Positions 1-16,384 of a DNA stretch of 19,928 nucleotides are shown piece after piece. The notes under the pieces were generated by a model, which saw nothing but the letters and a program-made list of their open reading frames with translations, ran no database searches and was not told where the DNA came from. Source of the DNA: Candidatus Thorarchaeota archaeon (lineage in GTDB: Archaea; Asgardarchaeota; Thorarchaeia; Thorarchaeales; Thorarchaeaceae); NCBI GenBank assembly GCA_048882485.1, contig JBHLRP010000054.1, forward strand, positions 1 to 19,928, read 5' to 3'. A program made the translations under genes and the position numbers. The number at the start of each line of letters is the position of its first letter. Within the stretch, counting starts at the first letter, position 1.

Positions 1-17
1 GAGTTAGAGAAGGATGT

Positions 18-2297
18 ATGATGAAGCAAGTCGGATGGCTCCTTGATGCCACCGTCGACTACGAGAATCAGGCACTGACGCTGTGGATCAAGGCCAGTGG
101 AAAGACCCGTGGATATGTGTACAAAGAGTTCCACCCCTCAGTCTTTGTCAGTCGTGAGAAGAAGAAAGGATTGGACTGGAGTTTTGATGACATCCTCAAG
201 GCGGCCCGTGCACATCCCAAGGTGACTAGGACAAGATTCACTCAGAAGCGTGCCAGTGTCTATGACCAAGAGATGAGTCGCGTATTGGAGGTCTTCACTA
301 CACCAGACGCCCACAGAGAAGTAGCAGGAGATTTGGAACAGATTCCTGGAGTCACTGTGTTTCACGGAGACATCGACCCTGTGCATCAGTTCTTCATCCA
401 CGATGACATCTTCCCATTTGGCAAGGTTGCCTTTGAGTCAAAGGGGAACACTGTCACTGCGATACGATGTGTCGACAGACGGGAGGACACTGACTATGAC
501 ATGCCAGACCTTGAGGAGATAGGCTTTGAGGTGTTCGTTGATGCCAGACGGGTCTTTCCCAGACTGGAGGACAAGATTCACCACATTGACGTATATCATA
601 AAGGACTGACCATTCGAATTGAGGGCGAGAGCGAGAAGGAGATTCTCGAGGGGTTTCAGAGGACCGTTGACGGAATCGACCCAGATGTGATCGTCACCAG
701 AGATGGGGACGCGACCCTGTTCAGATACCTGACACTGCGAGCAAAGCTGAATGACGTACAGCTTGTCATGTCGCGGGACGGGTCAGTCTTGGATGTCAAG
801 CAGAAAGAGGCAAAGTCGTTCTGGGTGTACAACCAGGTCTTTTTCAGAGCGGGCAACATGGTCATGTTCAATGGCAGACTCCACATTGACAGGATGCAGA
901 GCTTCTACTACTCGCCTACGGGCCTTGAGGGCGTGATGGAGGGGTGTAGGCTCGCATATGCAAGACCACAGAGAGCATCACGGATGTCAATTGGTACAAT
1001 CAATGCGGCCGTCCAGTACTACAATGCCTACAAGATGGGAATCTTGATACCACCAGTGAAGAAGAACCCCGAGTTCCTGAAGACCGTAACAGACCTTGCG
1101 TCCATTGATAGAGGAGGCCTCATTCTTCAACCAAAGCCAGACATCTATGAGAACATTGCAGAGTGTGACTTCTCGTCGATGTATCCCACGTTGATGGTGA
1201 CACGGAACATAAGCCCAGAAACCATCTGCACAGTTGAAGACTGTCCAGACTGCCCCGAGTATTGCGTCGAGGTCCCCGAGGTGCCAATCCGTATCTGTCA
1301 ACGAAAGAGGGGGATTGTGGCTCGGTCACTGGAACTGGTGTTGGAGAAACGTGAGGCTTTTACGCAACTGATAGAACGAGGGTATGACGCAAAGAAATAC
1401 GAACGCATGCAAAACACACTCAAGGGCATACTGGTGTCATGCTTTGGATACTTGGGCTTCAAGAACGCTAGATTTGGAAGAGTAGAGGCACACACGGCAG
1501 TCACTGGACTGGCACGAGATGTACTTCTGCAGACGCAAGATATCGGAGAGAAAATGGGTCTTGAACTGATACATGGTATTGTTGACTCAGTGTGGCTCAG
1601 ATCCAGAGGCAGGCCTGACTATGACACACTTCAGGAGTTTTGTAGACGTGTCACAGAAGAAACCAACATCAAGATGTCCCTTAAGGGGATATTCAAGTGG
1701 ATGGTGATTCCCTCATCAAGACTCCACCCATCTATCGCACCATTGAATCGATACTATGGCGTCTACACTAACGGGGGCATCAAGACACGAGGTATTGAAA
1801 CTAGACGACGAGACACCTGTCTGTATGTAGGTGATTGCCAGGCTTCAATGCTCAAGGTGTTTGCGCGGGCCCAAAACAGGGCTGAATTCATAGAGAAGAT
1901 ACCAGAGGCACATTTAGTAGGTCAGGAGTTCATTGAGAGGCTCTATAGAGGAGATGTTGACATCCGGGACTTGGTCCTACATAATCGCCTCACACGTGAA
2001 CCACACGAGTACCGTGCGACATCAAGAGCGGCAATAGTTGCTCAGCAGCTTGTGGAGAGCGGTCGAGAATTGCATGCAGGACAGAAGGTACGCTATGTTC
2101 TCGTGAGCGCAGACTCAGAAAGCCCTCTGCGCCGTGTCAGGGCACTTGAGCTATTTGATGACGCCACAAGATATGACCCCATGGCATATGCGGACCTCTG
2201 CCTAAGAGCATTTGAGAATCTGATACCACGTCATTTTCTTGACGAACAGGATTTACCCTCAAAAGAGGATGTTCTGGCGCACGCACCAAAGCTCTGA
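18..2297 (+). CDS. polB2: Family B DNA polymerase, archaeal PolB2 (Dpo2-like) group with degenerate 3'-5' exonuclease
   Basis: 759 aa. Motif A is CDFSSMYPTLM and motif B is KGILVSCFGYLGFKNARFG. Motif C reads HGIVDS instead of YGDTDS, typical of PolB2. C-terminal KTRGIETRRRD is present. The ExoII region TRDGDATLFRYL lacks the catalytic Asp. Start is ATG 18 or 21. Confidence 0.9.
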   Translation: MMKQVGWLLDATVDYENQALTLWIKASGKTRGYVYKEFHPSVFVSREKKKGLDWSFDDILKAARAHPKVTRTRFTQKRASVYDQEMSRVLEVFTTPDAHREVAGDLEQIPGVTVFHGDIDPVHQFFIHDDIFPFGKVAFESKGNTVTAIRCVDRREDTDYDMPDLEEIGFEVFVDARRVFPRLEDKIHHIDVYHKGLTIRIEGESEKEILEGFQRTVDGIDPDVIVTRDGDATLFRYLTLRAKLNDVQLVMSRDGSVLDVKQKEAKSFWVYNQVFFRAGNMVMFNGRLHIDRMQSFYYSPTGLEGVMEGCRLAYARPQRASRMSIGTINAAVQYYNAYKMGILIPPVKKNPEFLKTVTDLASIDRGGLILQPKPDIYENIAECDFSSMYPTLMVTRNISPETICTVEDCPDCPEYCVEVPEVPIRICQRKRGIVARSLELVLEKREAFTQLIERGYDAKKYERMQNTLKGILVSCFGYLGFKNARFGRVEAHTAVTGLARDVLLQTQDIGEKMGLELIHGIVDSVWLRSRGRPDYDTLQEFCRRVTEETNIKMSLKGIFKWMVIPSSRLHPSIAPLNRYYGVYTNGGIKTRGIETRRRDTCLYVGDCQASMLKVFARAQNRAEFIEKIPEAHLVGQEFIERLYRGDVDIRDLVLHNRLTREPHEYRATSRAAIVAQQLVESGRELHAGQKVRYVLVSADSESPLRRVRALELFDDATRYDPMAYADLCLRAFENLIPRHFLDEQDLPSKEDVLAHAPKL

Positions 2298-2304
2298 GGA
2301 GTTT

Positions 2305-3648
2305 CTATTCAGTGATAGCGTGCGCTTGCATAGCAATTCTGGGCTTGAGCTCACGCACTGGAATACCAGTTTCCTTGGAAACCTTCATGACATCATCAGC
2401 CTCAGGTTTGATATTGATTATACTCCCATCAACACCTCGTGAGACCTTCACACGAACCATGAACTCCATGCCCTCGATTTCCATCTTGCACACAATGGTT
2501 TCTCTTGCCGCCTTGAGTCGGTCCCAAGTTGTGTATCGAATTCCCAGGGTTCCAAGATGCCTGATCATGATTTCTGCAATATTCTGCAGCCCGGATTTAG
2601 CTGCAATCACCTTTACAACGTAAACAGGACGATTCTTCTTCCCATAGGCAGGAATCATCACCACATCATAAGCTAGGCCCTCTGAAAGAAGAGTATCAAA
2701 CATGGTTCCCATTATCTCACCGTCGATGTCATCAACATTGGTTTCAATCACGATTACTTCATCCGCACTCCATGAATCAATCATCCCAGCTCTATCCTCC
2801 TTTTTCGTCTTCGGTGCAGCTTTTTTCTTTGCAGGTTCTTTCTTGGGTGGTGCTTTCTTAGTTGGCTTCTTCGGTTCAAGCTTGACTTCATCAGCAAACT
2901 CGCCGACGATGACTCTCATTCTATTAGTCACATCACCTAGGTCACGAGAGCCGAATCCAGTACCCTGTTGCTTGACCATGAAACCTTCAGATGATTCCAC
3001 AAACTCAGTTGCCAATGTGACCAACAGAGCAGCGCCTGTTGGCGTTAGGACTTCTGTTTTTGCCTCACCCATTATGAATGGAACTTCGTTTGTCACGAGT
3101 ATTTCAGCTACAGCAGGGACAGGCACCTCGAGAGGGCCATGTTCCGTTTGTATTGTGCCACTCCCAACTGCTACATGAGTTGCAATTATCCGAGTATCAG
3201 TTAGAAGGCCTGAACGTTCCATGAGATAAGCAGTTCCAATTAAATCTAGGATGGTATCGACCGAACCGGTTTCATGAAGATGCAGCTTGTCTATTGGGGT
3301 CTCATGTGCTCTCGATTCAGCCTGCAGAATCTCATTCAATGCTCTCTGAGCTATTTCTTTCGCAGGTGGTGATAGCTCCAATTCCTCGGCAACTGCATCC
3401 AACATTTCAATCAAGTCATTGGGCCTGAATCGCATCTCGGAGTCCTTGGACACCTCCAATCGAACTCCTGACTGGTCATTTTCAGTCTTAGTGGTGAATC
3501 GAACCCTTAATGCTGGATCATAAAGCAATAGACTTGCAGCCACCGGAAGAAGAGCATCGTCTTCACCCAGAAAATCGACTAGTGCAGATAGAAACATGTC
3601 CCCTGATGTGCCAGCATTCCTGACATCAATAAGGACGGTTCTTGTCAA
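2305..3648 (-). CDS. larC: Nickel-pincer cofactor biosynthesis protein LarC (nickel insertase), LarC1 and LarC2 fused in one frame
   Basis: Motifs GTSGDMFLSAL, ESRAH..LHLHETG.VDTILD, HGPLEVPVPA, TPTGAALL, GTGFGSRD, ETNVDD, KKNRP, TLGIR and KPEADD. TTG start with GGAG about 9 nt upstream; an in-frame stop at 3682-3684 limits any extension. Confidence 0.92.
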   Translation of the reverse strand: MTRTVLIDVRNAGTSGDMFLSALVDFLGEDDALLPVAASLLLYDPALRVRFTTKTENDQSGVRLEVSKDSEMRFRPNDLIEMLDAVAEELELSPPAKEIAQRALNEILQAESRAHETPIDKLHLHETGSVDTILDLIGTAYLMERSGLLTDTRIIATHVAVGSGTIQTEHGPLEVPVPAVAEILVTNEVPFIMGEAKTEVLTPTGAALLVTLATEFVESSEGFMVKQQGTGFGSRDLGDVTNRMRVIVGEFADEVKLEPKKPTKKAPPKKEPAKKKAAPKTKKEDRAGMIDSWSADEVIVIETNVDDIDGEIMGTMFDTLLSEGLAYDVVMIPAYGKKNRPVYVVKVIAAKSGLQNIAEIMIRHLGTLGIRYTTWDRLKAARETIVCKMEIEGMEFMVRVKVSRGVDGSIINIKPEADDVMKVSKETGIPVRELKPRIAMQAHAITE

Positions 3649-3854
3649 TTCGTCATTCTCCGGTGCTTTCGATTGTCCAACTCATGACGCAACTAAGCCG
3701 CCCTTTTCTTTCTTTCGAGGGCGTAGGTTGATGGTCTTTGAGGTCAGACTAGAATTCTTGCGGGTAGCCTAAATAATGTTGCCAGCACGAACAATTGAGC
3801 TCTGCGGAGAAAATGAGTGTACATCCGAACATTAGAGGACTCTTCGATTCGGAT

Positions 3855-4667
3855 TCATTCTTTGAATGTCATCCGCGCATTTCTTTTCGCCGCAGAGCCA
3901 CCTCGCCGCCATTGTTCAAAGATTGCCATGTACATGCACTCTTGTGGACTAATCCACATATCAGAAGAGTCAAACGACTCATCGACGAACTCAACTGGTG
4001 CAGAACGAATCAAGGCCGCTGGGATTGATTCATCTGACTCACCCATCACTGCGGTACATGCAGAAGCAAGATTGTCCGCTATTGCTCGTCTAGTTATCCT
4101 CATCTCATTGCCAAAGAGATCAGTTCGTCCTCTGTCATCGGCCACCGGTCGAAATCCTGCCACACCAAGTGCCATCCCAATATTCCCAAGACGGAGTGGT
4201 TGAGTCCTGCTATCAATGATCAGAACTCCGATGTTTTTCCCATATCGATCATGTGCTGCCCGTCTTATTCGTTCAGCGCTCCCCTTTGGGTCGGTAGGTA
4301 GCAGAGACGCATGTCCGGGTGGCACATTGGACTTGTCCACGCCAGCGTTGGCCATGAGCGTGTTGTTTTTGATTGTTAGAATCACATGTGGAATCCCACC
4401 GAGAATCTCATCCGCCTCTCTGAGCACAAGCTCTGCGACCTCAGGCAAGAGATCATACTCATCAGCAAGCTCGATGGCTTCCTCACTAGGGTCAACTCCA
4501 GCAAGTTTGACTATCCGTTCTTCAGTAGTTCCTAATGGAGTCTCTGCAATCCCCAGGATGTCGTGATTCTCCAATTCGAGACCCTGTGATTCTAGTGCAC
4601 CAATGAGGACTTCAAGAATGTCATCAGTCTCAGAGATGATACACGTCTTAATGGGAAAGATTTGCAT
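3855..4667 (-). CDS. cofE: Coenzyme F420-0:gamma-glutamyl ligase
   Basis: Motifs ANAGVDKSN, LLPTDP..SAERIR, GVLIIDS...PLRLG..GMALGVAG, DDRGRTDLFG..MRIT..AIADNLASA and MGESDESIPAALIR. ATG 4667 (MQIFPIK) is preferred over the ORF-track start 4727 because GAGGT lies just upstream and the CofE N-terminus begins there. Confidence 0.92.
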   Translation of the reverse strand: MQIFPIKTCIISETDDILEVLIGALESQGLELENHDILGIAETPLGTTEERIVKLAGVDPSEEAIELADEYDLLPEVAELVLREADEILGGIPHVILTIKNNTLMANAGVDKSNVPPGHASLLPTDPKGSAERIRRAAHDRYGKNIGVLIIDSRTQPLRLGNIGMALGVAGFRPVADDRGRTDLFGNEMRITRRAIADNLASACTAVMGESDESIPAALIRSAPVEFVDESFDSSDMWISPQECMYMAIFEQWRRGGSAAKRNARMTFKE

Positions 4668-4727
4668 CAGTGATACCTCTGCTCCCGCGTGGAGGCATAC
4701 TAAGATAAAACCTCTCAATGAACACAA

Positions 4728-6164
4728 TTAGGCCTTGGATTTCTTCGACCGCTGAAGCTTCATCCTGGCATCCATTATGCATTTGTCGCCCTTTCGACCG
4801 CCCATTGGATTGTGAATAGTACCCATAGAATTCATGCATCGAGCGGCAACAGCCGCCCCCATTGCCAGACCATCTTCGACTATGAGCATTTGCCTCGACG
4901 CAGTCCATTTTGTGCCGCGGTCTGTAATCAGTTGTGAATTAATGATGCTAGGCTTATTTCCTGTTGTGATGGCCCTTCCTGTGAGTCCCAAGGAAGTATC
5001 TTCCAAAATTAGTCCTTCTGAGAACGCTAGGTCTACCAAGCGCTGTACCACTTGAGCCTGCACAAGATCAATGACGGTTAGCAAAGCATCAGTGCCGGAT
5101 TCTTTAACAATGCCCTTTCCAATTCGCTCCAAGTCTGAAAAGCGAGACCCATTCACTCCCGAGTCCACGCCTATCAGAATTACCTCGGATTCAATGGCTG
5201 CTTTCACATCAACTGGAACCATCCCAAATCTAGTAGTTCCCTTTGATATCGCCTCAACTCGAATATTGGAATGAATCTCATCTATCCAGTCATTGTCGAC
5301 ATCAACCTTTCGAGGCCGCGCTGAGTCTTTGACATCAAGAAGAGTACCAGTCTTTTCCTCTACGATACCAGAACCTCTGACTAAAGCATCCGGTATTGCT
5401 CCAGCTAAGCCAGCAAATGATCCAATGGTTTCTGCATATGGATGTCCATCATCTGTCACTCTACCAGCAAGAGTAGTTCCGAAGTCAAGGGTCATAACGG
5501 GATTTCTGAAGTCCACATCTGCAATCTTTGCTGCTCCTTTCAATCCAGCAGTTACGAGCTCGCCCTCCATCTCATTTGCGACTATCTCAGCATTAGATGG
5601 GGGAAGAGAACTGGCTACAGCACCGTCAAAGTATACCTTATGGAGCCAAGTGAAGTTTCTCAGACTTGGAGGAAGATTCTCCGGCGATATGGAAGCAGTC
5701 ATCTTTCTTGGAGCTACACCTGCATCAAGACAACCCTCCGCAAGCGCCTTAACAATGGCCCCGACTTCCTCCGGTTCGGCGAATCCTGCATTGACGCCTG
5801 TAGAACGAACAACAAAATGGAGGTCCTTATCGATGTCAAGTCGTGCGCGGACGAGTGCGGTTCTAAGTATATCAGATACCATCTCAGCAACTGACTCTTT
5901 CGTCAAGTCGATGCCAGTAAGTGTGCGACCAAAGACATCCTCGCCATTTAGTGGAGCGCGGACATCCCTGGTCATTCGAACTTCCTTGTCGATTTCGAAG
6001 ATTTCAGCAGTTTCGAGATTTGTCGATACAATCACACATTTTGTGGTCGTGTTTCCAAGTTCAACTGATGCAACGGTGTAGTAGGGTCCCATTCGAAGAC
6101 TAGAAGGTCCAATGCTACGCGGGCGAATCAGTCTCAATTTTCCTTCTCCTTTTCCATCATTCAT
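4728..6164 (-). CDS. mmp14: Methanogenesis marker protein 14 (DUF2114 family), actin/ASKHA-like ATPase fold
   Basis: Motifs YYTVASVELGNTTTKC, VRMTRDVRAP, DLHFVVRSTGV, VANEMEGELVTAGLK, DFRNP..TLDFGTTLAGR and C-terminal ARCMNSMGT..NPMGG..G.KCIM..R.K.Q. The ATG overlaps the mtrH stop (ATGA). An alternative TTG start at 6137 follows AGGAG. Confidence 0.9.
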   Translation of the reverse strand: MNDGKGEGKLRLIRPRSIGPSSLRMGPYYTVASVELGNTTTKCVIVSTNLETAEIFEIDKEVRMTRDVRAPLNGEDVFGRTLTGIDLTKESVAEMVSDILRTALVRARLDIDKDLHFVVRSTGVNAGFAEPEEVGAIVKALAEGCLDAGVAPRKMTASISPENLPPSLRNFTWLHKVYFDGAVASSLPPSNAEIVANEMEGELVTAGLKGAAKIADVDFRNPVMTLDFGTTLAGRVTDDGHPYAETIGSFAGLAGAIPDALVRGSGIVEEKTGTLLDVKDSARPRKVDVDNDWIDEIHSNIRVEAISKGTTRFGMVPVDVKAAIESEVILIGVDSGVNGSRFSDLERIGKGIVKESGTDALLTVIDLVQAQVVQRLVDLAFSEGLILEDTSLGLTGRAITTGNKPSIINSQLITDRGTKWTASRQMLIVEDGLAMGAAVAARCMNSMGTIHNPMGGRKGDKCIMDARMKLQRSKKSKA

Positions 6165-7096
6165 AGAAGTTTCCTGAAGGGGTGATTCGCTGGTGGCTCT
6201 AGACCCATTTCCATCTTTGCTGACTCGGCTGAAAAGATGTCTGCCATTGCTACCGCTGGAAACACTCTATCTGCATTGCCTATCGGACCATAAAGAAGGA
6301 AATCAGCTCCTAGTGACTGAACAACTAGGTTCGAGGCAATATCACATATCTTGTACGCTTCTCGGTTCTCCTTTCTATATTGCTTTAGCCAAGTCCATGA
6401 TGATGCGGCATTATGAATCCCAGAACCTGTAGGATGACCATACAGGGTTTTAGATACAAATGTGAAAGAGACCGCGGCGCCAGCTCCAGCCCCCATGGCT
6501 GTTGTGGCTGTATCAATCAGGGGTTTATTCACCCCTACGTCTTCTGCGATGGACAGTAGTCCCTGCTTCAGCGATGCAGTGCCTTCGTCGAGTATAGCCC
6601 TACGACCTGCTGTCGATGAGTCTTGCGGATTGAAGGCAAGCACAATTGCACACTCATGTTGGATATCACGCAGAGCATCAATTTCTTCCGTAGTCACGGA
6701 TATGTTGATAGAGTTGTAGATTGCCTTGTCGATGAGTCCAATCGCCTCAGAATACCGCAAACCTTCCACGCGTACCATAGGGTCTGTAGAATCAATGATG
6801 AATGGCGCATCCGTCAAAGCAGATACAAAATCTATGTATTTCTCCATAGCAATTGTCGACTCAGCGAATATCTGAACCATTGCAGGGTTTCCTGTCATAT
6901 CAGACATTGTTTCTTGACCGTTAATCAGATTCTCTGCTGCACTCGTATCCACTATCCCCTTGGAAGCATCTTGTACTATCTTGTGTCCTCCATAGAAGAT
7001 GGTCCCGGCCAGAACTGTTGGCGTTTCTCCGGGATTGCCCCCTATCTTTACGCCACCAATGTCATAGATGTACTGTTCTTTCTGAAACACAAACAA
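6161..7096 (-). CDS. mtrH: Tetrahydromethanopterin S-methyltransferase subunit H (pterin-binding TIM barrel), canonical-type copy
   Basis: N-terminus MFVFQKEQ...GGVKIGGNPGETPTVLAGTIFYGGHKIV, then IIDS, IYNSIN, IVLAFNP, PLIDTA, GHPTGSGIHN and GADFLLYGPI. TTG start with AGGAG upstream inside the end of mtrA. Confidence 0.92.
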   Translation of the reverse strand: MFVFQKEQYIYDIGGVKIGGNPGETPTVLAGTIFYGGHKIVQDASKGIVDTSAAENLINGQETMSDMTGNPAMVQIFAESTIAMEKYIDFVSALTDAPFIIDSTDPMVRVEGLRYSEAIGLIDKAIYNSINISVTTEEIDALRDIQHECAIVLAFNPQDSSTAGRRAILDEGTASLKQGLLSIAEDVGVNKPLIDTATTAMGAGAGAAVSFTFVSKTLYGHPTGSGIHNAASSWTWLKQYRKENREAYKICDIASNLVVQSLGADFLLYGPIGNADRVFPAVAMADIFSAESAKMEMGLEPPANHPFRKLL

Positions 7097-7099
7097 TGT

Positions 7100-7783
7100 C
7101 TACAACTCCTTTGCAATTAGAGCCGTTCCAGACTCAGTGGAATGAACCTCAATTCCGATAGATGTCGGATGGGCAGTGATTATAGCACCGGCTTCTTGAG
7201 AAGCAACTAAGAAAGAAAAGGGGTTCAGTGATACACCATATTCCGGAAGCAGAGAAATTGAAGCCCCAAATCCAATTCTTTCTGCCGTGCCTGCAGCCCC
7301 TCTGAAATCAATAAACATGGGTTCTTCATCAAAGGACCCTGGATTCTTGGCTTGCAGCTTTGCAGCCTTTTCAGCTATTTCATCAGCATGAGAGTTGTTC
7401 ATCATATCCACGAATTCGATCTGTTGCCTGAATCGCTCCACGCCTTCAAGTGGCACATTTTCAATATAGGGAATGGCTCCGGGTGCGTCCACTATCTTGC
7501 GTGTATCGGCGTCAACGCCGTTTTCGTAGAGAGCCTTCATAGATGATCCAGTCAAATGACCTGGAACCTCAGGACCTGCAAGAATCAAGAAACGAATGGA
7601 AGGATTCGAGATCACATTGATGATGACCCGCTCAATTCCAATATTCTCAGTCTTACATGTACCAAGTATGGCAAAACTACCAGGAACATGGAATTTCTTA
7701 CCTAATGTACAGATTGCTACAGAGTGATCGGGGTCTCCAACCTCGAAGTCTCCGGGCACATGAGGCCAGTTATTCGCAGACAT
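7100..7783 (-). CDS. mtrA: Corrinoid protein of the MtrA family, soluble (MtxA-like), no transmembrane anchor, about 55-aa C-terminal extension
   Basis: Motifs WPHVPGDFEVGDP, GTCKTENIGIERVIINVISNPSIRFLIL.G.EV.GH (cobamide-ligating His76), GAIPYIEN, VERFRQQI and PG.FDEEP. No hydrophobic C-terminal helix. GGAGG Shine-Dalgarno upstream. Confidence 0.92.
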   Translation of the reverse strand: MSANNWPHVPGDFEVGDPDHSVAICTLGKKFHVPGSFAILGTCKTENIGIERVIINVISNPSIRFLILAGPEVPGHLTGSSMKALYENGVDADTRKIVDAPGAIPYIENVPLEGVERFRQQIEFVDMMNNSHADEIAEKAAKLQAKNPGSFDEEPMFIDFRGAAGTAERIGFGASISLLPEYGVSLNPFSFLVASQEAGAIITAHPTSIGIEVHSTESGTALIAKEL

Positions 7784-7796
7784 GATGAAACCTCCT
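7784..7796 (-). promoter_or_regulatory. Shine-Dalgarno site of mtrA overlapping the upstream stop codon
   Basis: Minus strand reads TAGGAGGTTTCATCATG. Similar GAGG/GGAG sites precede both mtrH copies, consistent with a polycistronic mRNA. Confidence 0.7.
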
Positions 7797-8712
7797 ATTC
7801 CCTCGCCTTTGGCTCGAAGAGATGTTTCGTTGTTCCAAGCACTTGGCTAGCTTCCCCAACCGCCGAGAAAATTGCGTTCTGTATTAGCGCCACAGCTGCA
7901 AATACCTCTTGAGACCTTCTCATCGACCCATAAATTATGCAATCTGTGGCGAATAATTGGGCTGCCGCTATTGAGGCTACTACTGATGAATTGACTACCT
8001 CCTCTTTTTCTAGCTCCTGCTCCCTGATGAACTTCCAGGCAGATGGTGCATTATGTGGTGCTAGACATGTAGGCAGTCCCAGCTCTGACTTTACTGCGAC
8101 ATTCGTTCTCAGTTCTAATCCATATCCTGCTCCCACAGGCATCGTTCCAGGGTCAATAACGAATTTCTCTATCCCCAATCCCTTCGCATCAGAAACTATT
8201 GCCTCAATTACATCCATCCGTTCCTTCAGCGAGCTAGCCCTCGGGGACCATCCTAATACAACAGCCATGCTGAGCTGACTATCTTTCAAGAATGCACGTT
8301 CATCCTCATCCATGGACATATTGATCGAATTGTAGATTGCTCTCCCTGTTAAGCCAGCCTCATTGCAAAAGTCGGTGGCCCGCTTTTTGGCGCTAGAATT
8401 TGGGGATTCATACATGAAGGGGCCATCGAAATTCTCAGCCAGCCATGATAGATGACGCTCCATAGCAACGCCCGATCGCCCATATACTTCTACAATCATT
8501 GGATGACCAGTCCTCTCGGACATTTTAATCCCAGAGTCAAGCCACTCCTTTGCAGTCTTCTTGTCAAAGAGACCCTCTTTTGTGCTCTCCACAATTGATT
8601 GTCCTTTAAAGAAGAGTCCCCCCACAAGGACTGTTGGATTCTCTCCCGGATAGCCTCCGATTGTTATACCACTGAAGTCAAACGACTTCTGCTCTTTTTT
8701 AAAGACAAACAT
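7795..8712 (-). CDS. mtrH: Second, divergent MtrH-family methyltransferase (MtxH/MtgA-like)
   Basis: N-terminus MFVFKKEQ...GITIGGYPGENPTVLVGGLFFKGQSIV, then IYNSIN, VIDPG, GLPTCLAPHNAPSAW and IIYGS. Colinear over its full length with the 6161..7096 protein, but divergent. Confidence 0.85.
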   Translation of the reverse strand: MFVFKKEQKSFDFSGITIGGYPGENPTVLVGGLFFKGQSIVESTKEGLFDKKTAKEWLDSGIKMSERTGHPMIVEVYGRSGVAMERHLSWLAENFDGPFMYESPNSSAKKRATDFCNEAGLTGRAIYNSINMSMDEDERAFLKDSQLSMAVVLGWSPRASSLKERMDVIEAIVSDAKGLGIEKFVIDPGTMPVGAGYGLELRTNVAVKSELGLPTCLAPHNAPSAWKFIREQELEKEEVVNSSVVASIAAAQLFATDCIIYGSMRRSQEVFAAVALIQNAIFSAVGEASQVLGTTKHLFEPKARE

Positions 8713-8724
8713 TCTTGTTCAACC

Positions 8725-9627
8725 TCAACCGGGACGTGGATAAAGCCCTGCTGACTTGATGAGTTCTGGTACGCAGGACTCCCAGCCTACAGCCATTATA
8801 TGAACGCCGTCCACTCCATTAATCGTTCTCAATGAATTGATAGTTTCAGCAGCAATAGACAGACCTTCTTGCTGGATTGCCTGTTCCTTTTCCTCATCAT
8901 CAAGCCCCTCAGCAGCATTATCTAGGCGTTGAAGAATCGCATCAGGAATTGTGATGCCAGATACATGTTCGGTCATAAACTCGGCCATTTCTAGTCCCCG
9001 CAAAGGAACAACCCCAGCTAGAATATACGTATTCAAATCCGCAAGGGATTCTACAAATTCTGCTAGGCGAGATATGTCAAAGACAGCTTGAGTCTGAAAG
9101 AATTGGGCACCAGATTCATGCTTCAACTTTGCTCTTTGTATCTGATACTCAACTGGTTCGACAAAGGGATCGAACGTGGCTCCAAGAAAGAAATCGGGCA
9201 CCCCCTCAATCTCCTCATCGGAATGGTCTTTGCCTGCCATCATTCGAGAAGCCAATCGAAGAGCTTGAATTGAATCAATATCTGAAACAATCTTGGCTTG
9301 GGTGTTTGATCCAAGACCCGGAAGGTCACCTGTAACAAAGAGCACATTGCGAATTCCTAGAGCATAGGCGCCATAAAGATCACTCATCAAAGCCACTCTA
9401 TTACGGTCTCTCATTGCCATCTGCAGGATAGGTTCTAGTCCTGCATCAAGTGCCAACCTTGCTCCTGCAATGCTGCTCATTCTGGGGATTCTTCGTGGAT
9501 TGTCAGGTATATTAACTGCATCACAGAAGGGCTTGACCACACTCGCCTTCTCAATCAACGACAGGTGGTCAGCTCCTCGAGGCGCACCTATCTCAGCGGT
9601 TACAACAAACTCACCGCTTTGCAGCAT
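8725..9627 (-). CDS. metF: 5,10-methylenetetrahydrofolate reductase (FAD-dependent MetF family)
   Basis: Motifs FVVTAEIGAPRG, DAVNIPDNP, EPILQMAMRDRNRVAL, GIRNVLFVTGD, GAQFFQTQAVFD, ILAGVVPL and GVDGVHIM. The true start may be a CTG at 9651. Confidence 0.9.
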   Translation of the reverse strand: MLQSGEFVVTAEIGAPRGADHLSLIEKASVVKPFCDAVNIPDNPRRIPRMSSIAGARLALDAGLEPILQMAMRDRNRVALMSDLYGAYALGIRNVLFVTGDLPGLGSNTQAKIVSDIDSIQALRLASRMMAGKDHSDEEIEGVPDFFLGATFDPFVEPVEYQIQRAKLKHESGAQFFQTQAVFDISRLAEFVESLADLNTYILAGVVPLRGLEMAEFMTEHVSGITIPDAILQRLDNAAEGLDDEEKEQAIQQEGLSIAAETINSLRTINGVDGVHIMAVGWESCVPELIKSAGLYPRPG

Positions 9628-9732
9628 TTGCCCAAGACGAGATATCGGCAGTTTTGGGGACTCCCTGTGTGTGGATAGTGAAGGGTCAACCGATGTGAAC
9701 CTCTTAACTACTTTGGTGTGTTTTCAAGAATC

Positions 9733-11025
9733 TCACTCGTCAATTCTCATAAGAGTCCCGTCAGCGACCATCTTGGATAGTTTCTGAGCAAGTACAGCAT
9801 CTAATCTCACGTCAACAGATATTGTGCCCTTGCTATACTCTTGGTTAGAAACGGAAGTAACATCATGAAGCCAAGAAAGCATTGACATTGACGTATCATC
9901 ATACGGAAGAACAAGGCGATACGTCGCAAGTGGCATAAGACTTCGCTCCACTGCTTCAATTAAATCTTCCAGATTCGTTCCATTCATTGCAGAAATTGGG
10001 ACAACTTCTGGATTGGTGGATTCGATCAATTCGATGCGTTGAGCCATCTCGTCTTCATCAAGAAGATCTATCTTGTTTAGGGCGATGATAAGAGGAATGC
10101 CATTTGCCTCAATATCCACAAAAGTTTCTAAACAAGTGTTCAACTTGCGCTCAATCTCTTCCAATGAATCAGAACCGTCAACAACTAGTATAATGACATC
10201 GGCTTCACCAATTTCCATCAGCGTTGTATTGAATGCCCGAATTAGCGCACGAGGTAAATCACTGATGAAACCAACAGAATCGGTTAGAACTGCTTGATGA
10301 CCCGGTAGTGGAATTGTAGAGGTTTTGGTTGATAGTGTGGTAAACAATTGGTCTGCAACTTCGGCTTCTGAACCAGTTAACGCATTATGGAGGGTACTTT
10401 TCCCAGCATTCGTATACCCTGCGAGTGTCACTTCCTCAAATCCTTTCTTTTCCCGACCCCTTCGCTTCAGGCTCTGTTTTCTTGAGATGGTTTCGAGCTT
10501 CTCTTCAATGACAGCAATGCGTTTACGAATATGCGAAATATGGATGTCCAATGGATTCTCGCCAGGTCCTACCTGATCTGCGATTGGTCTATCGCCAACA
10601 TGCTCCTGCTGGAGCCGAATTCGAATCTGGTGACGCTGGAATGGTAGCTCATATCTAAGACGCGCCTGCTCTATTTGCAGCTTAGCCTGGGGAGTACGAG
10701 CATGACGGTCGAATATTTCTAGAATTACCTGAGTCCTGTCACGCACCTCAATCTCCCATTTTTCCATGAGACGAAACATTTGACCAGATGTCAGGGTAGG
10801 TGAAAAGAGAACAAAGTCGGGCTCGTTGACTTGAATCCATGTTTGGATTTCTTCAACCTTTCCACTTCTGATGCCATATTTCGCTGATGATGCGCCTACA
10901 ATGTCGAAGGTTCCTAACACCTCATAGCCTGCTGTGGTCGCTAAAGCCTCAAACTCACTGAGCAAATTCGGATCTTTGTAATCCCGCCTCTGTACGAGTA
11001 GAGCTTTTACATCGGTCATTGTCAT
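9733..11025 (-). CDS. hflX: Ribosome-splitting GTPase HflX
   Basis: N-domain DRTQVILEIFDRHART..AKLQIEQARLRYELP and GPGE. G1 GYTNAGKST, G2 LFTTL, G3 DSVGFI, G4 NKID, G5 ISA. A C-terminal domain is present. Confidence 0.95.
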   Translation of the reverse strand: MTMTDVKALLVQRRDYKDPNLLSEFEALATTAGYEVLGTFDIVGASSAKYGIRSGKVEEIQTWIQVNEPDFVLFSPTLTSGQMFRLMEKWEIEVRDRTQVILEIFDRHARTPQAKLQIEQARLRYELPFQRHQIRIRLQQEHVGDRPIADQVGPGENPLDIHISHIRKRIAVIEEKLETISRKQSLKRRGREKKGFEEVTLAGYTNAGKSTLHNALTGSEAEVADQLFTTLSTKTSTIPLPGHQAVLTDSVGFISDLPRALIRAFNTTLMEIGEADVIILVVDGSDSLEEIERKLNTCLETFVDIEANGIPLIIALNKIDLLDEDEMAQRIELIESTNPEVVPISAMNGTNLEDLIEAVERSLMPLATYRLVLPYDDTSMSMLSWLHDVTSVSNQEYSKGTISVDVRLDAVLAQKLSKMVADGTLMRIDE

Positions 11026-11042
11026 TTAACCGGAGTGAACCA

Positions 11043-11051
11043 TCTTAAAGC
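11043..11051 (-). promoter_or_regulatory. Putative TATA box for hflX (probably leaderless transcript)
   Basis: Minus-strand CTTTAAGA lies about 20-30 nt upstream of the ATGs at 11025 and 11019, in the divergent hflX/tgtA gap. No Shine-Dalgarno is evident. Confidence 0.35.
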
Positions 11052-11114
11052 GTTCCATTCTATCCATAAGGAAAGATTCATGGGCATATCCGACGGCACA
11101 CCAAAAGAACGAGT

Positions 11115-13148
11115 ATGAGTCATTTCGAAATCCGTGCAAAGGATGGACTCGCCCGGTTAGGGAGATTGACCACAGCCCACGGCACAGTGAAGACTCCGCT
11201 TCTTATGCCTGTGGTGCATCCAGGAAAATCAGCGATTACGCCACAGGAGCTGATTACCGAGTTTGGCTTCCAAATGGTGATCACAAACTCATACATCATT
11301 CGATCGCACGAACGATTCCGCACAAAAGCAATTGGCTGTGGAGTTCATGAACTTCTAAACTTCACTGGACCAATCATGACTGACTCTGGCACATTTCAGA
11401 TGTATTTCCATGGTCTGGCTGAAGGAGAGATTGACCCTCTCGAAATCATTGAGTTTCAGAAGACCATAGGGTCAGATATTGGAACCATCCTTGATGTATT
11501 CTCGGACCCATCGGTTGGAAGAGCCAAGGTTGAGCAGGATGTTGCCGTTTCATTGGAACGAGCACGGCTCTCAGTGCATAGGAAGGGGGATATGATGCTT
11601 GCAGGAACAGTCCAAGGCGGCATCTACGAGGATCTCAGAGAGAGCTCAGCAAAAGAACTTGCGTCCTTGGACTTCGATGTGCATCCAATTGGAGGTGTAG
11701 TCCCCCTAATGGAGCAATATCGCTATTCAGAGATGGCCCGGGTAGTACTTGCTTCAAAGAAACACCTTCCGCCTGATAGACCCGTCCATCTCTTTGGATG
11801 TGGTCACCCAATGCTCTTTGCTCAGGCGTCGCTTTTGGGCTGTGACTTCTTCGATTCAGCATCCTATGCAAAATTCGCAGAATCTGGTAGAATGTTACTA
11901 CCATCGGGGACTGTGCACTTGAAAGACCTAACTGAGCTTCCATGTAGTTGTCCAATCTGCAGTACAACCTCGGCTGATGCTCTGAAGAGTGAGAAGAAGG
12001 AGGAGCAAGAGCTACAGCTTATGAAGCACAACCTATATGTCAGTTCAGCCGAGATGCGAAGAGTGCGTCAGGCGATTTCAGAAGGCAAACTATTCGAATT
12101 GGCCGCATACCGAGCCAGAGGCCACCCAACCCTCTATGATGCACTGGCGCTGATTCTAGAGCAACATCTGCGATTGGAGAAGGAGGATCCAATAGGGAAG
12201 AAGTCTTCGATCTTCTATACAGGTCCGGAAACCACAAAACGACCAGAAATAACTAGGTTCCTTTCTCGGATTATCTCTCGCTATCCCTACAAAAGAACAA
12301 ATACAGTTCTACTCGTATCGGACCCAGGTCTCAGACCTTTCTCTGACACATCTGGCGAAATCATCAGGGAAGTCAGGAAGAGAAGAGCAGATGACTTAGT
12401 GTTACTATTTGTGACTCCAATGGGCATCGTACCCTGGGAATTGGAACACGTGCATCCAGCGCAGCAGTGTTTATTCCCAGAGCGTCTAGATTCAGAAACA
12501 CTTGGAATAGTCTGTGAGAGGACACGAATAATCCTTGAGTCGATGACATATGAAAAAGCCATTTGGTTCAAGCGAAAGGTCAATGTGGATGTGACACTTT
12601 CAGGACTAATCGATGAGCTTTCTATTGAAACTGTTTCGAGTGCGACTGATGCAACGAATAAGTTACCTCCAGGTGATGAAGATGTTTCTTGGACTAGAAG
12701 AAAACTTAGGGCACTCCTGATGCATCAATGGGGAGTAAATGCAGGAAAATTGGCAGACCTTGATGGTCTGAAAATTGACCTCTCGAAGAGTACAGGCAAA
12801 ATTAGACATTGTAAGATCAATGATGATATTCTTTTCACTTTAGTTCCCACGACTGGACTCCTAACTCCAACGTACCTCGGAGGGCAAGAGCTTCTACGGA
12901 TTGGTCTTAATGACACCTACAAGGTTGTTATTGATTCAGATGTTTCACAGTTCGTGGCAAATGGAAAGTCTGCCCTGGCCAAATTCGTGAAAATTGCTTC
13001 AACAGAACTCAACGCTGGAGAAGAGGTGTTGGTCCTTGATGAAGACCAGAATCTCCTAGCCACTGGAAGAGCTCAAATTAGCGGTCGTGAAATGACCTCA
13101 TTCAATCGTGGCGTTGCTGTTCAGATTAGGCATTCGTGGAAGAGCTAG
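11115..13148 (+). CDS. tgtA: Archaeosine tRNA-guanine(15) transglycosylase (arcTGT) with C-terminal PUA domain
   Basis: Motifs FEIRAKDGLARLG, TPLLMPVVHP, ITNSYII, IMTDSGTFQ, HPIGGVVPLME, HLFGCGHP and FDSASY. Zn site CSCPIC...HN. PUA domain FVANGKSALAKFV...GEEVLV...LLATG...GVAVQIR. Confidence 0.95.
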   Translation: MSHFEIRAKDGLARLGRLTTAHGTVKTPLLMPVVHPGKSAITPQELITEFGFQMVITNSYIIRSHERFRTKAIGCGVHELLNFTGPIMTDSGTFQMYFHGLAEGEIDPLEIIEFQKTIGSDIGTILDVFSDPSVGRAKVEQDVAVSLERARLSVHRKGDMMLAGTVQGGIYEDLRESSAKELASLDFDVHPIGGVVPLMEQYRYSEMARVVLASKKHLPPDRPVHLFGCGHPMLFAQASLLGCDFFDSASYAKFAESGRMLLPSGTVHLKDLTELPCSCPICSTTSADALKSEKKEEQELQLMKHNLYVSSAEMRRVRQAISEGKLFELAAYRARGHPTLYDALALILEQHLRLEKEDPIGKKSSIFYTGPETTKRPEITRFLSRIISRYPYKRTNTVLLVSDPGLRPFSDTSGEIIREVRKRRADDLVLLFVTPMGIVPWELEHVHPAQQCLFPERLDSETLGIVCERTRIILESMTYEKAIWFKRKVNVDVTLSGLIDELSIETVSSATDATNKLPPGDEDVSWTRRKLRALLMHQWGVNAGKLADLDGLKIDLSKSTGKIRHCKINDDILFTLVPTTGLLTPTYLGGQELLRIGLNDTYKVVIDSDVSQFVANGKSALAKFVKIASTELNAGEEVLVLDEDQNLLATGRAQISGREMTSFNRGVAVQIRHSWKS

Positions 13149-14289
13149 AAGGTGCAGCCGCAAGTGCCAGGGGATGGCCTGGAACCTTGCGTAGAGCATC
13201 AACCCCTCCTAGTGGAAGTATCATTACTTCATCTGAGGGTGCGAAGAGGTGAATATCATCACCCTCCTTGATTTCAGAATCGGGATCAAGTAGAGCCTGA
13301 GCCGAAATATCACCAACTTGGAAATAGACCTCCAAAGCATTTCCAACGTATATTGTCCTTGTGACTTTGCCTATAATCTCGTTGTCTGAGGCGCTTTCTC
13401 GCTGTAGGTGAAGGTCCTCAGGTCGAATGGCAACTTTGACTTCCTCATTTATCTCAAATGGGTAGCCATCAATCGTGGTTTGGCCAATAGCAGTCTGATC
13501 GTTTGGAATTCGTGCAGTAATGCTATCATTGACCTCATCAACAGTCCCATCAATAAAGGTGCATTGTCCTATGAAATCGGCGACAAAAACGGTCTGAGGT
13601 GTTGCATAGATTTCCCTTGGTGTATCGAACTGCTGGACATATCCCTTGTCCATGACAGCAACCCTATCTGAAATACTGAGTGCTTCATGTTGATCATGTG
13701 TAACATACACAGTTGTGATTGACATCTCCTTGTGTATTCTAATAATCTCCTCTCTCATCTCAATCCGAAGTTTCGCATCGAGATTGGAAAGAGGTTCATC
13801 TAGGAGGAGCACGTCTGGTTCAATGACAAGTGCACGAGCGAGGGCCACACGCTGCTGTTGCCCACCGGAAAGCTGGTGAATGTGTCTTTGTCCTAGTTCC
13901 TCCATTCTTACGAGACTCAGAGCTTCGTTAACACGACGGGCAACAGCACTCTTTGTGTACCTCAAGTTGTTCTCAAAACGTTTCAATTTCAATCCGTATG
14001 CCACATTGTCAAATACCGACATATGTGGCCATAATGCATAGTTCTGAAAGCACATTCCCGTGTTGCGTTTGTGAGGAGGAACAACTGTCATATCTTTATC
14101 ATCGAAGAAAATTCGGCCACGATCAGGGACATAGAATCCAGCGATTAGGCGAAGAAGAGTTGTTTTTCCACAACCAGACGGCCCTAGAAGTGTGGCAAGT
14201 TCACCCTCCTCAATAGCAATGTTCACTTCGTCTGTAGCGATAACTTCACCAAAGGTCTTTCGCAAATTCTCAGTTCTAATAACGACCAT
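13126..14289 (-). CDS. ABC importer ATP-binding subunit (FbpC/PotA class) with C-terminal TOBE domain
   Basis: Walker A GPSGCGKT, Q-loop FQNYALWPHM, signature LSGGQQQR, Walker B LLLDEP, H-loop YVTHDQ, plus FVADFIG and AIRPED. Confidence 0.93.
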   Translation of the reverse strand: MVVIRTENLRKTFGEVIATDEVNIAIEEGELATLLGPSGCGKTTLLRLIAGFYVPDRGRIFFDDKDMTVVPPHKRNTGMCFQNYALWPHMSVFDNVAYGLKLKRFENNLRYTKSAVARRVNEALSLVRMEELGQRHIHQLSGGQQQRVALARALVIEPDVLLLDEPLSNLDAKLRIEMREEIIRIHKEMSITTVYVTHDQHEALSISDRVAVMDKGYVQQFDTPREIYATPQTVFVADFIGQCTFIDGTVDEVNDSITARIPNDQTAIGQTTIDGYPFEINEEVKVAIRPEDLHLQRESASDNEIIGKVTRTIYVGNALEVYFQVGDISAQALLDPDSEIKEGDDIHLFAPSDEVMILPLGGVDALRKVPGHPLALAAAPSSSSTNA

Positions 14290-14299
14290 ATTTCACACC

Positions 14300-16384
14300 T
14301 CATATTCCTGTAATAGCTGCAGACCTAGCTCCCAATATTTTGTTTGTGAGCGTAATTATCATCCATTGCACAACCATCAATAATACACCTAAACATGCTG
14401 CACTAGTTGCCCCTCCCCATTCACCTATCATCTCCAGCACCCTAGACGTCCAATATGTAATGGGTGCCTCCGAATGCCCAACACTACCTAATAGAAGGCT
14501 TGTGCTAACCTCGCTCACTGAATATACAAATGAAAGAAGTGATCCTGCAAGAAGACTCACACCTATGAGCGGTAATGTGATCTTAACGAAGGTCCTATTT
14601 TTACTGGCACCCAGGTTTTGCGATGCCTCCTCCAAAACCACAGGCGTTGACATTAATCCAGCGTATGCAGCTCTGACAGTAAATGGGAATTTCCGGACGG
14701 TATATGACATGACTATCAAAAACGCTGGATGGCCAATTGGGAATACTGGAGTATTATAGAACAGAGTAAAGAAACCCGTGGCAATCACTATTCCTGGAAG
14801 TGCTATCGGAGCAGTCACGAGAAGATCAAGTGCGGTCTTTCCGGGAATGTCCTTTCTGGCAATTATGTAAGCCGCACTAGCCCCTAAGAGAACAATGAAT
14901 ATTGTTGCTATAATCCCATAAATAATAGTGACGTTAACCGATTGGGCTACATCAGGAAAGGCCCACAGAACCTCGAAGTTGCTCAGAGTCCATGTTTCAG
15001 GCAAAAGGTTCTGCTGTGGCCATGAGCCAGCGAGGGAAATCATGATAACACTGATTTGGGGTATTAATGCTAGAAATAGTATAGGGATCAATACACAATA
15101 GAGAAGGAGTTGAACTCTTCTACTTAGCCTTCTGGTCCTCGGATTCCACTGTCCACCTTTTGTCCCCGAATCATACGATCTTAGAGCTGTGTATTTTCGA
15201 ATGGCCAAGAATCCAATTAATGCAAACACTAGTAGCACAATGCCTATGGCTGGTCCTTCAGCACCAACCACTCCAGCTTGCGTTGCAACTGCTTGAAAGA
15301 CTCTGAATGCAAGTGTGTTCCTCGCGGTTGGGTGATCCTGGAATACTATAGGGGAACCTAAGTCCTCTATACTGAGAATGAAGGTCAATATTGCTCCAGC
15401 TTGAATGCCGGGCATCGCAAGAGGGAATGTAACAGAACGGAAAAGCTTGAAACCGGTTGCTCCAAGATTCTCTGCTTGCTCTTCCAAAGAGGGATCAATG
15501 CTCATGAAGGATGAATAGGCATTCAGATATACCAATGAAAATAACGAGAAGGACTGCACGAAAATCATTGCAGCAAGCCCTTGAAGCACGATAGCAGACG
15601 GCAGGATGTGAAGAGTTTCATAGAGCAGCTTGTTGATGAAGCCATCGAGTGCTAGGAATTCTTTGATTCCAATGGCACCTACAAATGGAATAGCCAAGAT
15701 TGGGAATATCAATAATGTGCGAACGACTCTTTTGCCAAAGAACTCATACTTAGCCATAAGAAATGCGAAAAAGACTCCAAGGGCAACGGCGGCTCCTGTA
15801 ACTATTATTGCTACATATATGGAGTTGAATATAGCTCCAAAGTCCCATCCCCAGATTGCTACAGCATTAAGCGCTTCATTGTATGCGGCAGCATTTAGAT
15901 TAATGTATACGTCTATTCCACCAGATTGGTTGGGAATGAATGGCCATATTCTTGGGTTCGAAAAGATATCTGTAAAGTTTCTCAGGGTAAATTGCCCAGA
16001 TGTAGTGAAGAATGCATAAATTCCGACACTCAAAAGAGGCATAATCAGAAAGAGTGTGAACACACCAACAACTGCGATCAATTGTATAGCTGTTATCTTA
16101 TCTAACTCGCGACGGGTTCCTTGGGCACCCTCGACCACCCTCATGCGGGTTCTTGAAGCCCACTTCTGAGTGCTTGTCTTTGGGTTCCTAATGAAACCCT
16201 CGAATCTAGTCAAGCCCCTGTCAATCCGAAGGGTAGCTGAATGGCTTCTTCGGGAGAACCATGAGGCTAAACTGATAGGAGCACCCTTGAGGGTACTCAC
16301 TAGGCTGCTCCGCCGATCTGCCGGAACTAGCTCGGAGTCTTCCTCAAGGATGTCCATTTCTTGTACTTCTATGTCTTTGGTCAT
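14300..16384 (-). CDS. ABC importer permease with two fused transmembrane domains (FbpB/ThiP class)
   Basis: Many hydrophobic helices and two EAA loops (SLEEQAENLGA..FRSVTFPL and LEEASQNLGAS..TFVKITLPL). Confidence 0.92.
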   Translation of the reverse strand: MTKDIEVQEMDILEEDSELVPADRRSSLVSTLKGAPISLASWFSRRSHSATLRIDRGLTRFEGFIRNPKTSTQKWASRTRMRVVEGAQGTRRELDKITAIQLIAVVGVFTLFLIMPLLSVGIYAFFTTSGQFTLRNFTDIFSNPRIWPFIPNQSGGIDVYINLNAAAYNEALNAVAIWGWDFGAIFNSIYVAIIVTGAAVALGVFFAFLMAKYEFFGKRVVRTLLIFPILAIPFVGAIGIKEFLALDGFINKLLYETLHILPSAIVLQGLAAMIFVQSFSLFSLVYLNAYSSFMSIDPSLEEQAENLGATGFKLFRSVTFPLAMPGIQAGAILTFILSIEDLGSPIVFQDHPTARNTLAFRVFQAVATQAGVVGAEGPAIGIVLLVFALIGFLAIRKYTALRSYDSGTKGGQWNPRTRRLSRRVQLLLYCVLIPILFLALIPQISVIMISLAGSWPQQNLLPETWTLSNFEVLWAFPDVAQSVNVTIIYGIIATIFIVLLGASAAYIIARKDIPGKTALDLLVTAPIALPGIVIATGFFTLFYNTPVFPIGHPAFLIVMSYTVRKFPFTVRAAYAGLMSTPVVLEEASQNLGASKNRTFVKITLPLIGVSLLAGSLLSFVYSVSEVSTSLLLGSVGHSEAPITYWTSRVLEMIGEWGGATSAACLGVLLMVVQWMIITLTNKILGARSAAITGI

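Follow-up and report, generated by a model that had tools for sequence, protein, structure and literature searches.

A soluble MtrA protein from Thorarchaeia with a C-terminal tail that resembles the N-terminus of MtrB

The window analyzed here is a 19,928-nucleotide stretch of chromosomal DNA from a Candidatus Thorarchaeota archaeon (assembly GCA_048882485.1, contig JBHLRP010000054.1, positions 1 to 19,928 of the forward strand), whose closest homologs all come from metagenome-assembled genomes labeled Thorarchaeota or Promethearchaeota. It carries an operon in which the gene for a soluble, MtrA-like corrinoid protein lies between the genes for two MtrH paralogs (MtrH1 and MtrH2), in the company of genes for a MTHFR-like enzyme, Mmp14, and CofE (Table 1). 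Thorarchaeia have been described as having canonical MtrAH without the other Mtr subunits (PMC9635834), and their MtrA and MtrH proteins reportedly branch near those of Thermoproteota (PMC9635834). An initial annotation of the mtrA gene, made from the sequence letters, had proposed that the membrane anchor of MtrA is replaced by a tail resembling the MtrB N-terminus, possibly in two copies; the coordinates and peptides that it gave are all present in the 227-residue open reading frame (ORF). We report that this tail is a conserved module, that its first segment is very probably homologous to the N-terminus of MtrB, and that its second segment is something else.

Table 1. Features of the MtrA/MtrH operon and of the MtrA protein encoded in the window. 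AF2, AlphaFold2; pLDDT, predicted local distance difference test score.
Feature	Positions	Strand	Basis or remark
MTHFR-like gene	8725-9627	-	heads the tight operon
MtrH1, divergent MtrH paralog, 305 aa	7795-8712	-	Pfam MtrH, 232 bits
mtrA-like gene, 227 aa plus TAG stop, soluble corrinoid protein	7100-7783	-	ORF and Pfam MtrA
Corrinoid (cobamide-binding) domain, residues 3-164	7292-7777	-	Pfam MtrA PF04208; AF2 pLDDT 85-97
Flexible Gly/Ala-rich linker, residues 161-175	7259-7303	-	AF2 pLDDT ~51; residues 163-165 below 50
MtrB-N-terminus-like segment, residues 176-199 (ISLLPEYGVSLNPFSFLVASQEAG)	7187-7258	-	hhalign; three predicted beta strands
Clade-specific C-terminal beta-hairpin module, residues 200-227	7103-7186	-	conservation and AF2 strands; not an MtrB repeat
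MtrH2, canonical-like MtrH paralog, 311 aa	6161-7096	-	Pfam MtrH, 387.6 bits; TIGR01114, 399 bits (cut-off 271)
DUF2114/methanogenesis marker 14 (Mmp14)	4728-6164	-	615 bits
CofE	3855-4727	-	downstream of Mmp14

The N-terminal part of the protein is an ordinary MtrA corrinoid domain. It matches Pfam PF04208 with 199.9 bits (cut-off 25) over residues 3 to 164, shares 53% identity with Methanobacterium MtrA across a stretch of 156 residues, and has PGSFDEEPMFIDF (residues 148-160) near its end; the quoted Gly/Ala linker follows at residues 161 to 174. His76 aligns with the cobalt ligand His84 (Methanothermobacter numbering) within the motif GSEVQGHITGQ and is invariant in 115 orthologs. These features, along with a flexible segment that follows the domain, are shared with canonical MtrA proteins (TIGR01111; PDB 5LAA, 8Q3V_A, and 9QTQ_A). 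In contrast, the stalk helix and transmembrane anchor with which canonical MtrA ends are missing. The maximum Kyte-Doolittle mean over 19 residues of the tail is 1.12, compared with 2.29 for the anchor of Methanobacterium MtrA, and the corresponding maxima of 63 orthologous tails range from 0.47 to 1.78, which bears out the original statement that there is no transmembrane helix. Because the C-terminus differs, the protein scores 195.3 bits against TIGR01111, the equivalog model for full-length canonical MtrA, for which the cut-off is 249, and the match does not extend past position 176 of the 238 in the profile. The last 60 residues bear no relation to canonical MtrA C-termini (hhalign probability 0.3%), and a derivation of the tail from the linker and stalk of canonical MtrA itself, as might be read from a 'VAPETA' string, was rejected on the same grounds (0.2-0.3%). 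The window protein is thus an MtrA without a membrane anchor. Among proteins of 399 to 2000 residues we found no long, fused version of this Thor-type MtrA; the only long forms were unrelated proteins of ~410 residues that combine PF14251 with MtrA.

The MtxXAH system of methanogens likewise has a soluble homolog of MtrA, called MtxA (NF010654), whose gene adjoins that of an MtrH homolog. However, the window protein scores 154.3 bits against NF010654, under the cut-off of 279, and therefore is not an MtxA equivalog; there is also no mtxX at this locus. A canonical Mtr complex would further be expected to be co-encoded with mtrE, mtrD, mtrC, mtrB, mtrF, and mtrG. Pfam searches of the window genome, which is 90.5% complete, gave no match for MtrB, MtrE, MtrF, or MtrG (MtrC and MtrD were outside the search).

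The region singled out initially, positions 7100 to 7264 on the minus strand, encodes residues 174 to 227 and the TAG stop codon and contains the two quoted peptides, SISLLPEYGVSLNPFSFLVASQE (residues 175-197) and AHPTSIGIEVHSTESGTALIAKE (residues 204-226). The tail proper is a conserved, beta-rich module of 52 residues. Thor-type MtrA was found in 65 species-representative genomes, and the 63 loci with a complete gene were used to build a tail profile. In the resulting alignment P180, E181, and G219 never vary, and at least 95% of the sequences keep P206, T220, and E226, so the tail is indeed a shared feature of the orthologs. Within the C-terminal region, column entropy is highest in the linker (2.69 bits, residues 163-175) and falls to 1.86 bits for residues 176 to 199 and 1.59 bits for residues 200 to 227, the latter having the consensus A..S.HPS.I.IE....GT.L.GKE. 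The best 120 of 638 homologs are ~228 residues long, and all but one partial sequence among them span 97 to 100% of the query. An AF2 model of the full-length protein (multiple sequence alignment of 115 sequences; overall pLDDT 85.8, predicted template modeling score (pTM) 0.68) places five strands in the tail, at residues 184-186, 193-195, 200-203, 209-216, and 219-226. A model of the tail alone (pLDDT 79.8) has strands at residues 176-179, 184-187, 192-195, 209-216, and 219-226.

We compared the tail profile with MtrB by using sequences drawn from the mtr operons of Methanobacteriota genomes. Note that the MtrB homolog search returned only Methanobacteria-like sequences, such that the MtrB, MtrA, and MtrF proteins of Halobacteriota and Thermoproteota lay outside these comparisons, and the sole Halobacteriota MtrB encountered was the Methanosarcina mazei chain from the PDB in the Foldseek and phmmer results. 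With hhalign, the profile of 63 tails aligned to that of 22 MtrB sequences with a probability of 90.5% (P 1.3e-6) over 24 columns, pairing residues 176 to 199 (tail positions 14-37) with MtrB residues 7 to 30. The first half of the tail alone gave 94% (P 1.2e-7), and a set of 47 more diverse MtrB sequences, which included the divergent 'IIDDDLVLDVN' type, still gave 82 to 91%; over all runs the probabilities were 82 to 94%, with P values from 1e-5 to 1e-7. As a control, 200 column shuffles of the tail profile reached at most a score of 19.7 and the reversed profile 10.9, compared with the observed 36.2. At the level of the family, the similarity that had been noticed by eye between the first segment and the start of MtrB is therefore above chance.

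A pairwise match to MtrB comes from a divergent ortholog in another Asgard family (genome G093, locus L131), which has the same MtrH1-MtrA-MtrH2 gene order. Its tail, which carries INLLPEFNINLDPYTGLVSAIAGDAFLTLT, aligns to MtrB by BLASTP over 30 ungapped residues with 11/30 identities and 19/30 positives (pairwise E value 8e-7). At L131 (contig C86; positions 1772 to 2548, minus strand), the tail hairpin, PEFNINLDPYTGLV, is much nearer to MtrB than is the window tail. For experiments, or for rooting, the G093 lineage may be the most suitable. We also built a hidden Markov model (HMM) from the first 40 MtrB columns and set its scores against those of 28,911 six-frame ORFs of the window genome. 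Ten of 64 orthologous tails exceeded the best background ORF (11.6 bits), with scores of up to 19.5 bits.

The tail shares with the N-terminal arm of MtrB (approximately residues 1-36; PDB 9QTP and 9QTS from M. mazei; PF05440) the motif [VIL]-x-[VIL]-[VIL]-P-E-[YF]-x-[LIV]-x-[LF]-[DN]-P-x-[ST]-x-[LIM]-[VI], three short beta strands in the same register, and a genetic location next to mtrA and mtrH. When the two are aligned on the P-E motif, M. mazei MtrB residues 1 to 23 correspond to residues 173 to 195, which is exactly the three-strand region of the AF2 model, and MtrB Glu9 corresponds to the invariant Glu181. In a Foldseek search of 350,542 PDB chains with the tail-only model, three M. mazei MtrB chains (9qts_E, 9qtp_E, and 9qts_D) ranked third, fourth, and seventh, with probabilities of 0.38 to 0.63 and rmsd values of 2.6 to 3.7 Å over 27 to 31 columns. 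What the window protein carries, at the profile level, is the MtrH-docking beta-sheet segment of MtrB (approximately residues 1-30). It is not a whole MtrB (PF05440), which consists of the N-terminal arm, a stalk helix, the GREG..Y.TAG motif, and a transmembrane helix. Unlike the arm of MtrB, the segment is placed C-terminally in MtrA instead of opening a protein of its own, has no stalk helix, GREG..Y.TAG motif, transmembrane helix, or basic residue equivalent to Arg5, and is followed by a clade-specific beta hairpin.

Several results weigh against homology, and they are also what would be expected if the resemblance to MtrB were convergent or due to chance and the tail were a small, lineage-specific beta domain unrelated to the Mtr stalk subunits. 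The similar stretch comprises only 24 to 30 residues. The window tail itself is among the weakest members of its family, scoring 0.5 bits against the MtrB N-terminal HMM, where the best unrelated ORF scores 11.6 bits, and matching MtrB by pairwise BLASTP with an E value of 0.004 over 13 residues. Because the window copy alone is undetectable by HMMER, the claim of homology rests on the family. No MtrB match was obtained with Pfam at E≤10, either for the tail or for the whole protein, or by phmmer and hmmsearch against the PDB, and the Pfam MtrB model matches nothing at this locus when run over Thor genomes. Direct detection with HMMER and Pfam thus failed, and the relation shows only in profile-profile comparison, for residues 176 to 199, or by way of orthologs that have kept it better. 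The Foldseek matches have E values of 2.3 to 3.0, which are not significant, none reached Z≥2 when re-scored with VIA-align, and because Foldseek also uses sequence they are not fully independent. Finally, a search of 1.84 billion representative proteins with the tail profile brought up nothing beyond Thor-type MtrA and pieces of it. Against a chance resemblance stand the hhalign P values of 1e-6 to 1e-7, backed by shuffling and reversal controls that came out clean, the ungapped 30-residue match in the divergent ortholog, the coincidence of the predicted strands with the three MtrB strands, and the presence of three MtrB chains within the top seven of 350,542. Moreover, the subunit that is resembled belongs to the very complex from which MtrA is known and was not preselected by any search. 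We therefore regard chance or convergence as unlikely and homology of the first segment to the MtrB N-terminus, at the profile level, as well supported.

The second segment is a different matter. The initial annotation saw in it a looser match to the same MtrB pattern and, from this, proposed two MtrB-like hairpins, perhaps one for each MtrH paralog. Both halves of the tail are indeed beta-rich and conserved, and a loose 'P...G(T)..L.G(K/R)E' resemblance between them can be seen by eye. However, hhalign gave residues 200 to 227 a probability of 0.2 to 0.5% against MtrB, with 1 to 3 aligned columns, and of 1.0% against the first half of the tail, with 2 columns. Hence the first copy stands and the second does not, and with it the idea of one hairpin per paralog falls away. 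A single MtrB N-terminus, moreover, serves the whole MtrH dimer in the canonical complex (PMC12774963), and we consider the two-hairpin arrangement, whether as an internal repeat or as a second MtrB arm, highly improbable. Other Mtr subunits were also tried as sources of the second half. The hhalign comparisons found no relation to the canonical MtrA C-terminus or to MtrG, and a 26-column alignment to the MtrF N-terminus (score 12.6) was equaled in 3 of 200 shuffles and did not improve when more MtrF sequences of Methanobacteriota were added, so that we treat a link to MtrF as unsupported. The N-terminus of MtrF is expected to form a short strand followed by a helix. The predicted secondary structure of the tail hairpin probably does not correspond to this arrangement.

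The function of the MtrB segment is known from methanogens. In the cryo-EM structure from M. mazei, MtrB residues 1 to 23 form a three-stranded sheet that is bound at the interface of the MtrH homodimer, where it plugs into a hydrophobic pocket, and two salt bridges, Arg5(MtrB)-Asp5(MtrH) and Glu9(MtrB)-Arg211(MtrH), are formed (PMC12774963). The N-termini of MtrF and MtrG extend the MtrB sheet, and the interface between MtrB and MtrH was described by the authors as weak and easily lost in purification (PMC12774963). The same contact between MtrB and the MtrH dimer had been predicted earlier with AF2 for M. marburgensis (PMC10998594). The statement, given with the first annotation, that this segment helps to attach MtrH is thus borne out.

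The two MtrH paralogs divide the corresponding surface features between them. M. mazei Arg211 aligns with Arg202 of MtrH1 and with Ser210 of MtrH2, and this position is Arg in 58/58 MtrH1 and 13/13 canonical MtrH sequences but Ala, Ser, or Gly in 61/61 MtrH2 sequences. Residue 5, an Asp in canonical MtrH, is Lys in 56 of 58 MtrH1 proteins and Glu, Asp, or Gln in MtrH2; the paralogs from G093 show the same split. MtrH2 keeps all of the pterin-binding residues as well as the basic patch R239/K242/K243, which is proposed to bind the tail of tetrahydromethanopterin (H4MPT), whereas MtrH1 keeps the pterin residues (with D103 changed to E) but has lost K242 and K243. The pterin-site and basic-patch differences are consistent with two different substrates. 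The complementary retention at the Arg211-equivalent position and at residue 5 is what the conversion of a homodimer, bound to a single asymmetric ligand, into a heterodimer would produce, although it is only suggestive. These residue patterns suggest that MtrH1 and MtrH2 form an obligate heterodimer with two substrate specificities.

From homology to the MtrB segment, we infer that the tail retains an MtrB-type docking sheet that tethers the cobamide carrier to the MtrH1/MtrH2 pair of a soluble, reduced Mtr system, and this is the reading that we favor, albeit with some reserve. MtrA would then be the corrinoid carrier of a three-protein methyl-transfer module, MtrH1-MtrA-MtrH2, having lost, or never had, a C-terminal membrane helix, in place of which it carries a flexible linker of ~15 residues and the 52-residue beta-sheet module. 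The tail would dock MtrA onto the MtrH1/MtrH2 heterodimer, with a pair formed by Glu181, the equivalent of MtrB Glu9, and MtrH1 Arg202. The final two strands would round off the sheet, taking the role that the MtrF and MtrG N-termini have in the canonical complex. Because one MtrB N-terminus suffices for a canonical MtrH dimer, one tail per MtrH1/MtrH2 pair fits better and a second docking hairpin is unnecessary. There would thus be one MtrA for each pair, and the linker would let its cobamide domain swing between two pterin sites that face in opposite directions. In such a module a methyl group could move between the substrate of MtrH2, in which the H4MPT-type features are intact, and that of MtrH1, in which the patch that binds the pterin tail is altered and whose carrier may be of the folate type, produced by the MTHFR-like enzyme encoded next to it.

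Not every contact of the methanogen interface has a counterpart in this scheme. The Arg5-Asp5 salt bridge has none, since the tail position in question is variable and non-basic. Furthermore, Arg occupies the Arg211-equivalent position in the third MtrH of the genome as well, which is encoded next to another corrinoid protein (the residue is Lys in 8z9u_B and Ala in MtgA). Because an MtrH without a tail-bearing partner carries Arg as well, the value of this residue as a diagnostic of docking is weakened. A Glu9-type contact is also not universal even among methanogens: in the Methanobacteriota mtr operons (loci L117 to L122), an MtrB subgroup has 'DD' in place of the 'PE' of the docking arm (IIDDDLVLDVNNGIIG), and the MtrA proteins that accompany it have LHTENLG in place of CKTENLG.

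The tail might, alternatively, descend from the MtrB N-terminus but no longer dock MtrH, having taken on another task, such as binding Mmp14 or the MTHFR-like enzyme, mediating the oligomerization of MtrA, or packing back against the corrinoid domain. Of the two salt bridges published for MtrB and MtrH, a single one has conserved counterparts here, the second hairpin is more conserved than the MtrB-like part (1.59 versus 1.86 bits), which suggests an additional or different interface, and Mmp14 and MTHFR are as firmly fixed in the operon as the mtrH genes. However, no role other than MtrH docking is known for this part of MtrB, both the invariant Glu and the Arg with which it would pair are kept, and mtrH lies on both sides of mtrA in two Asgard families. 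In the full-length AF2 model, moreover, a linker of low confidence lies between the corrinoid domain and the tail (pTM 0.68 as against pLDDT 85.8), which argues against a fixed fold-back. On balance, loss of the docking function seems rather improbable, and we retain a docking tail as the preferred reading.

A broader evolutionary account can be offered tentatively. The tail could be a molecular fossil of the Mtr stalk, in which case the Thor MtrAH proteins would come from a complete, membrane-bound, MtrB-containing Mtr complex of a methanogen-like ancestor. This complex would have been remodeled into a soluble heterodimer of MtrH1 and MtrH2 with a self-tethered cobamide carrier, which shuttles methyl groups between H4MPT-type and folate-type carriers. 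An MtrA domain followed by an MtrB-like segment is the reverse of the canonical mtrB-mtrA gene order, and therefore a simple read-through fusion cannot explain the origin of the tail. If the account is right, it would describe a previously unrecognized enzyme architecture that joins two pterin pools in Asgard archaea.

Two other arrangements in the literature invite comparison. Covalent MtrA-MtrH fusions occur in Atabeyarchaeia, Freyarchaeia, and other Asgards (PMC11291895). In these, as is proposed here, the corrinoid domain is attached to the MtrH barrel without membrane subunits, but the attachment at the Thor locus would be non-covalent, would use an MtrB-type element, and would involve two separate MtrH paralogs. 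A TACK-type mtrA::mtrF fusion, from the operon EDCB[AF]FGH (PMC9982363), likewise gives MtrA a C-terminal portion that belongs to a stalk subunit. Unlike the window protein, it keeps the membrane complex and involves MtrF rather than MtrB; the MtrF sequences compared with the window tail were those of Methanobacteriota. We found no mention in the literature of an MtrB-like tail, or of a part of MtrB, as a third subunit, retained on MtrA.

A tail that docks MtrH as MtrB does would provide a testable architecture for the MtrAH systems of non-methanogens, which are widespread and biochemically uncharacterized, and would offer a naturally minimal, soluble system for the study of the MtrB-MtrH interface. 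It could also supply sequence-level evidence as to whether soluble MtrAH modules derive from the membrane Mtr complex or gave rise to it, a direction relevant to how ancient methanogenesis is and to the C1 metabolism of Asgard archaea.

Among 151 sampled Asgard genomes, the tail profile matched in 25 of the 26 genomes from the family of the window, in the single genome from another family (1/1), and in none of 123 others. The gene order HflX-MTHFR-MtrH1-MtrA-MtrH2-Mmp14-CofE is essentially invariant across 65 species loci, and in the tail-bearing orthologs mtrA always lies between the genes for the two MtrH paralogs. Ordinary genes flank the operon in the window, encoding PolB, a LarC-like protein, HflX, an archaeosine TGT, an ABC transporter, and a polyprenyl synthase.

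The start of mtrH2 in the window lies 3 nucleotides past the mtrA stop codon, and this spacing is mostly 1 to 5 nucleotides across the loci, which suggests translational coupling. At positions 7094 to 7102 (minus strand), the TAG of mtrA is followed by one codon and then by the in-frame TTG start of mtrH2, an arrangement that could be taken for programmed read-through to an MtrA-MtrH2 fusion. Across 64 loci, however, the mtrH2 frame relative to mtrA is distributed 19/19/26 over the three frames and the mtrA stop codon is TAG in 34, TAA in 15, and TGA in 15. Both the frame and the stop codon thus vary as expected by chance, and read-through was rejected.

The gene for Mmp14 is directly downstream of mtrH2 in nearly all 65 Thor loci and overlaps the mtrH2 stop codon. 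Its fixed position makes Mmp14 a candidate partner of the soluble MtrA/MtrH module, for example as a candidate ATP-dependent corrinoid activase.

Two further loci in the window genome (G000) encode related proteins. The second MtrA-family gene of the genome (L129, contig C64, positions 2348-3340, minus strand) specifies a protein of 330 residues with an N-terminal 2x[4Fe-4S] ferredoxin-like region, an MtrA-like domain, and a hydrophilic C-terminus, but without an MtrB-like tail. The third MtrH homolog, of 308 residues, is encoded in a separate cluster (L130, contig C10, positions 290-3580, minus strand) together with a RACo-like [2Fe-2S]/ASKHA activase of 534 residues and a B12-binding corrinoid protein of 209 residues. 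This cluster is a conventional methyltransferase system of the MtgA type, and its MtrH is the one with Arg at the position equivalent to R211.

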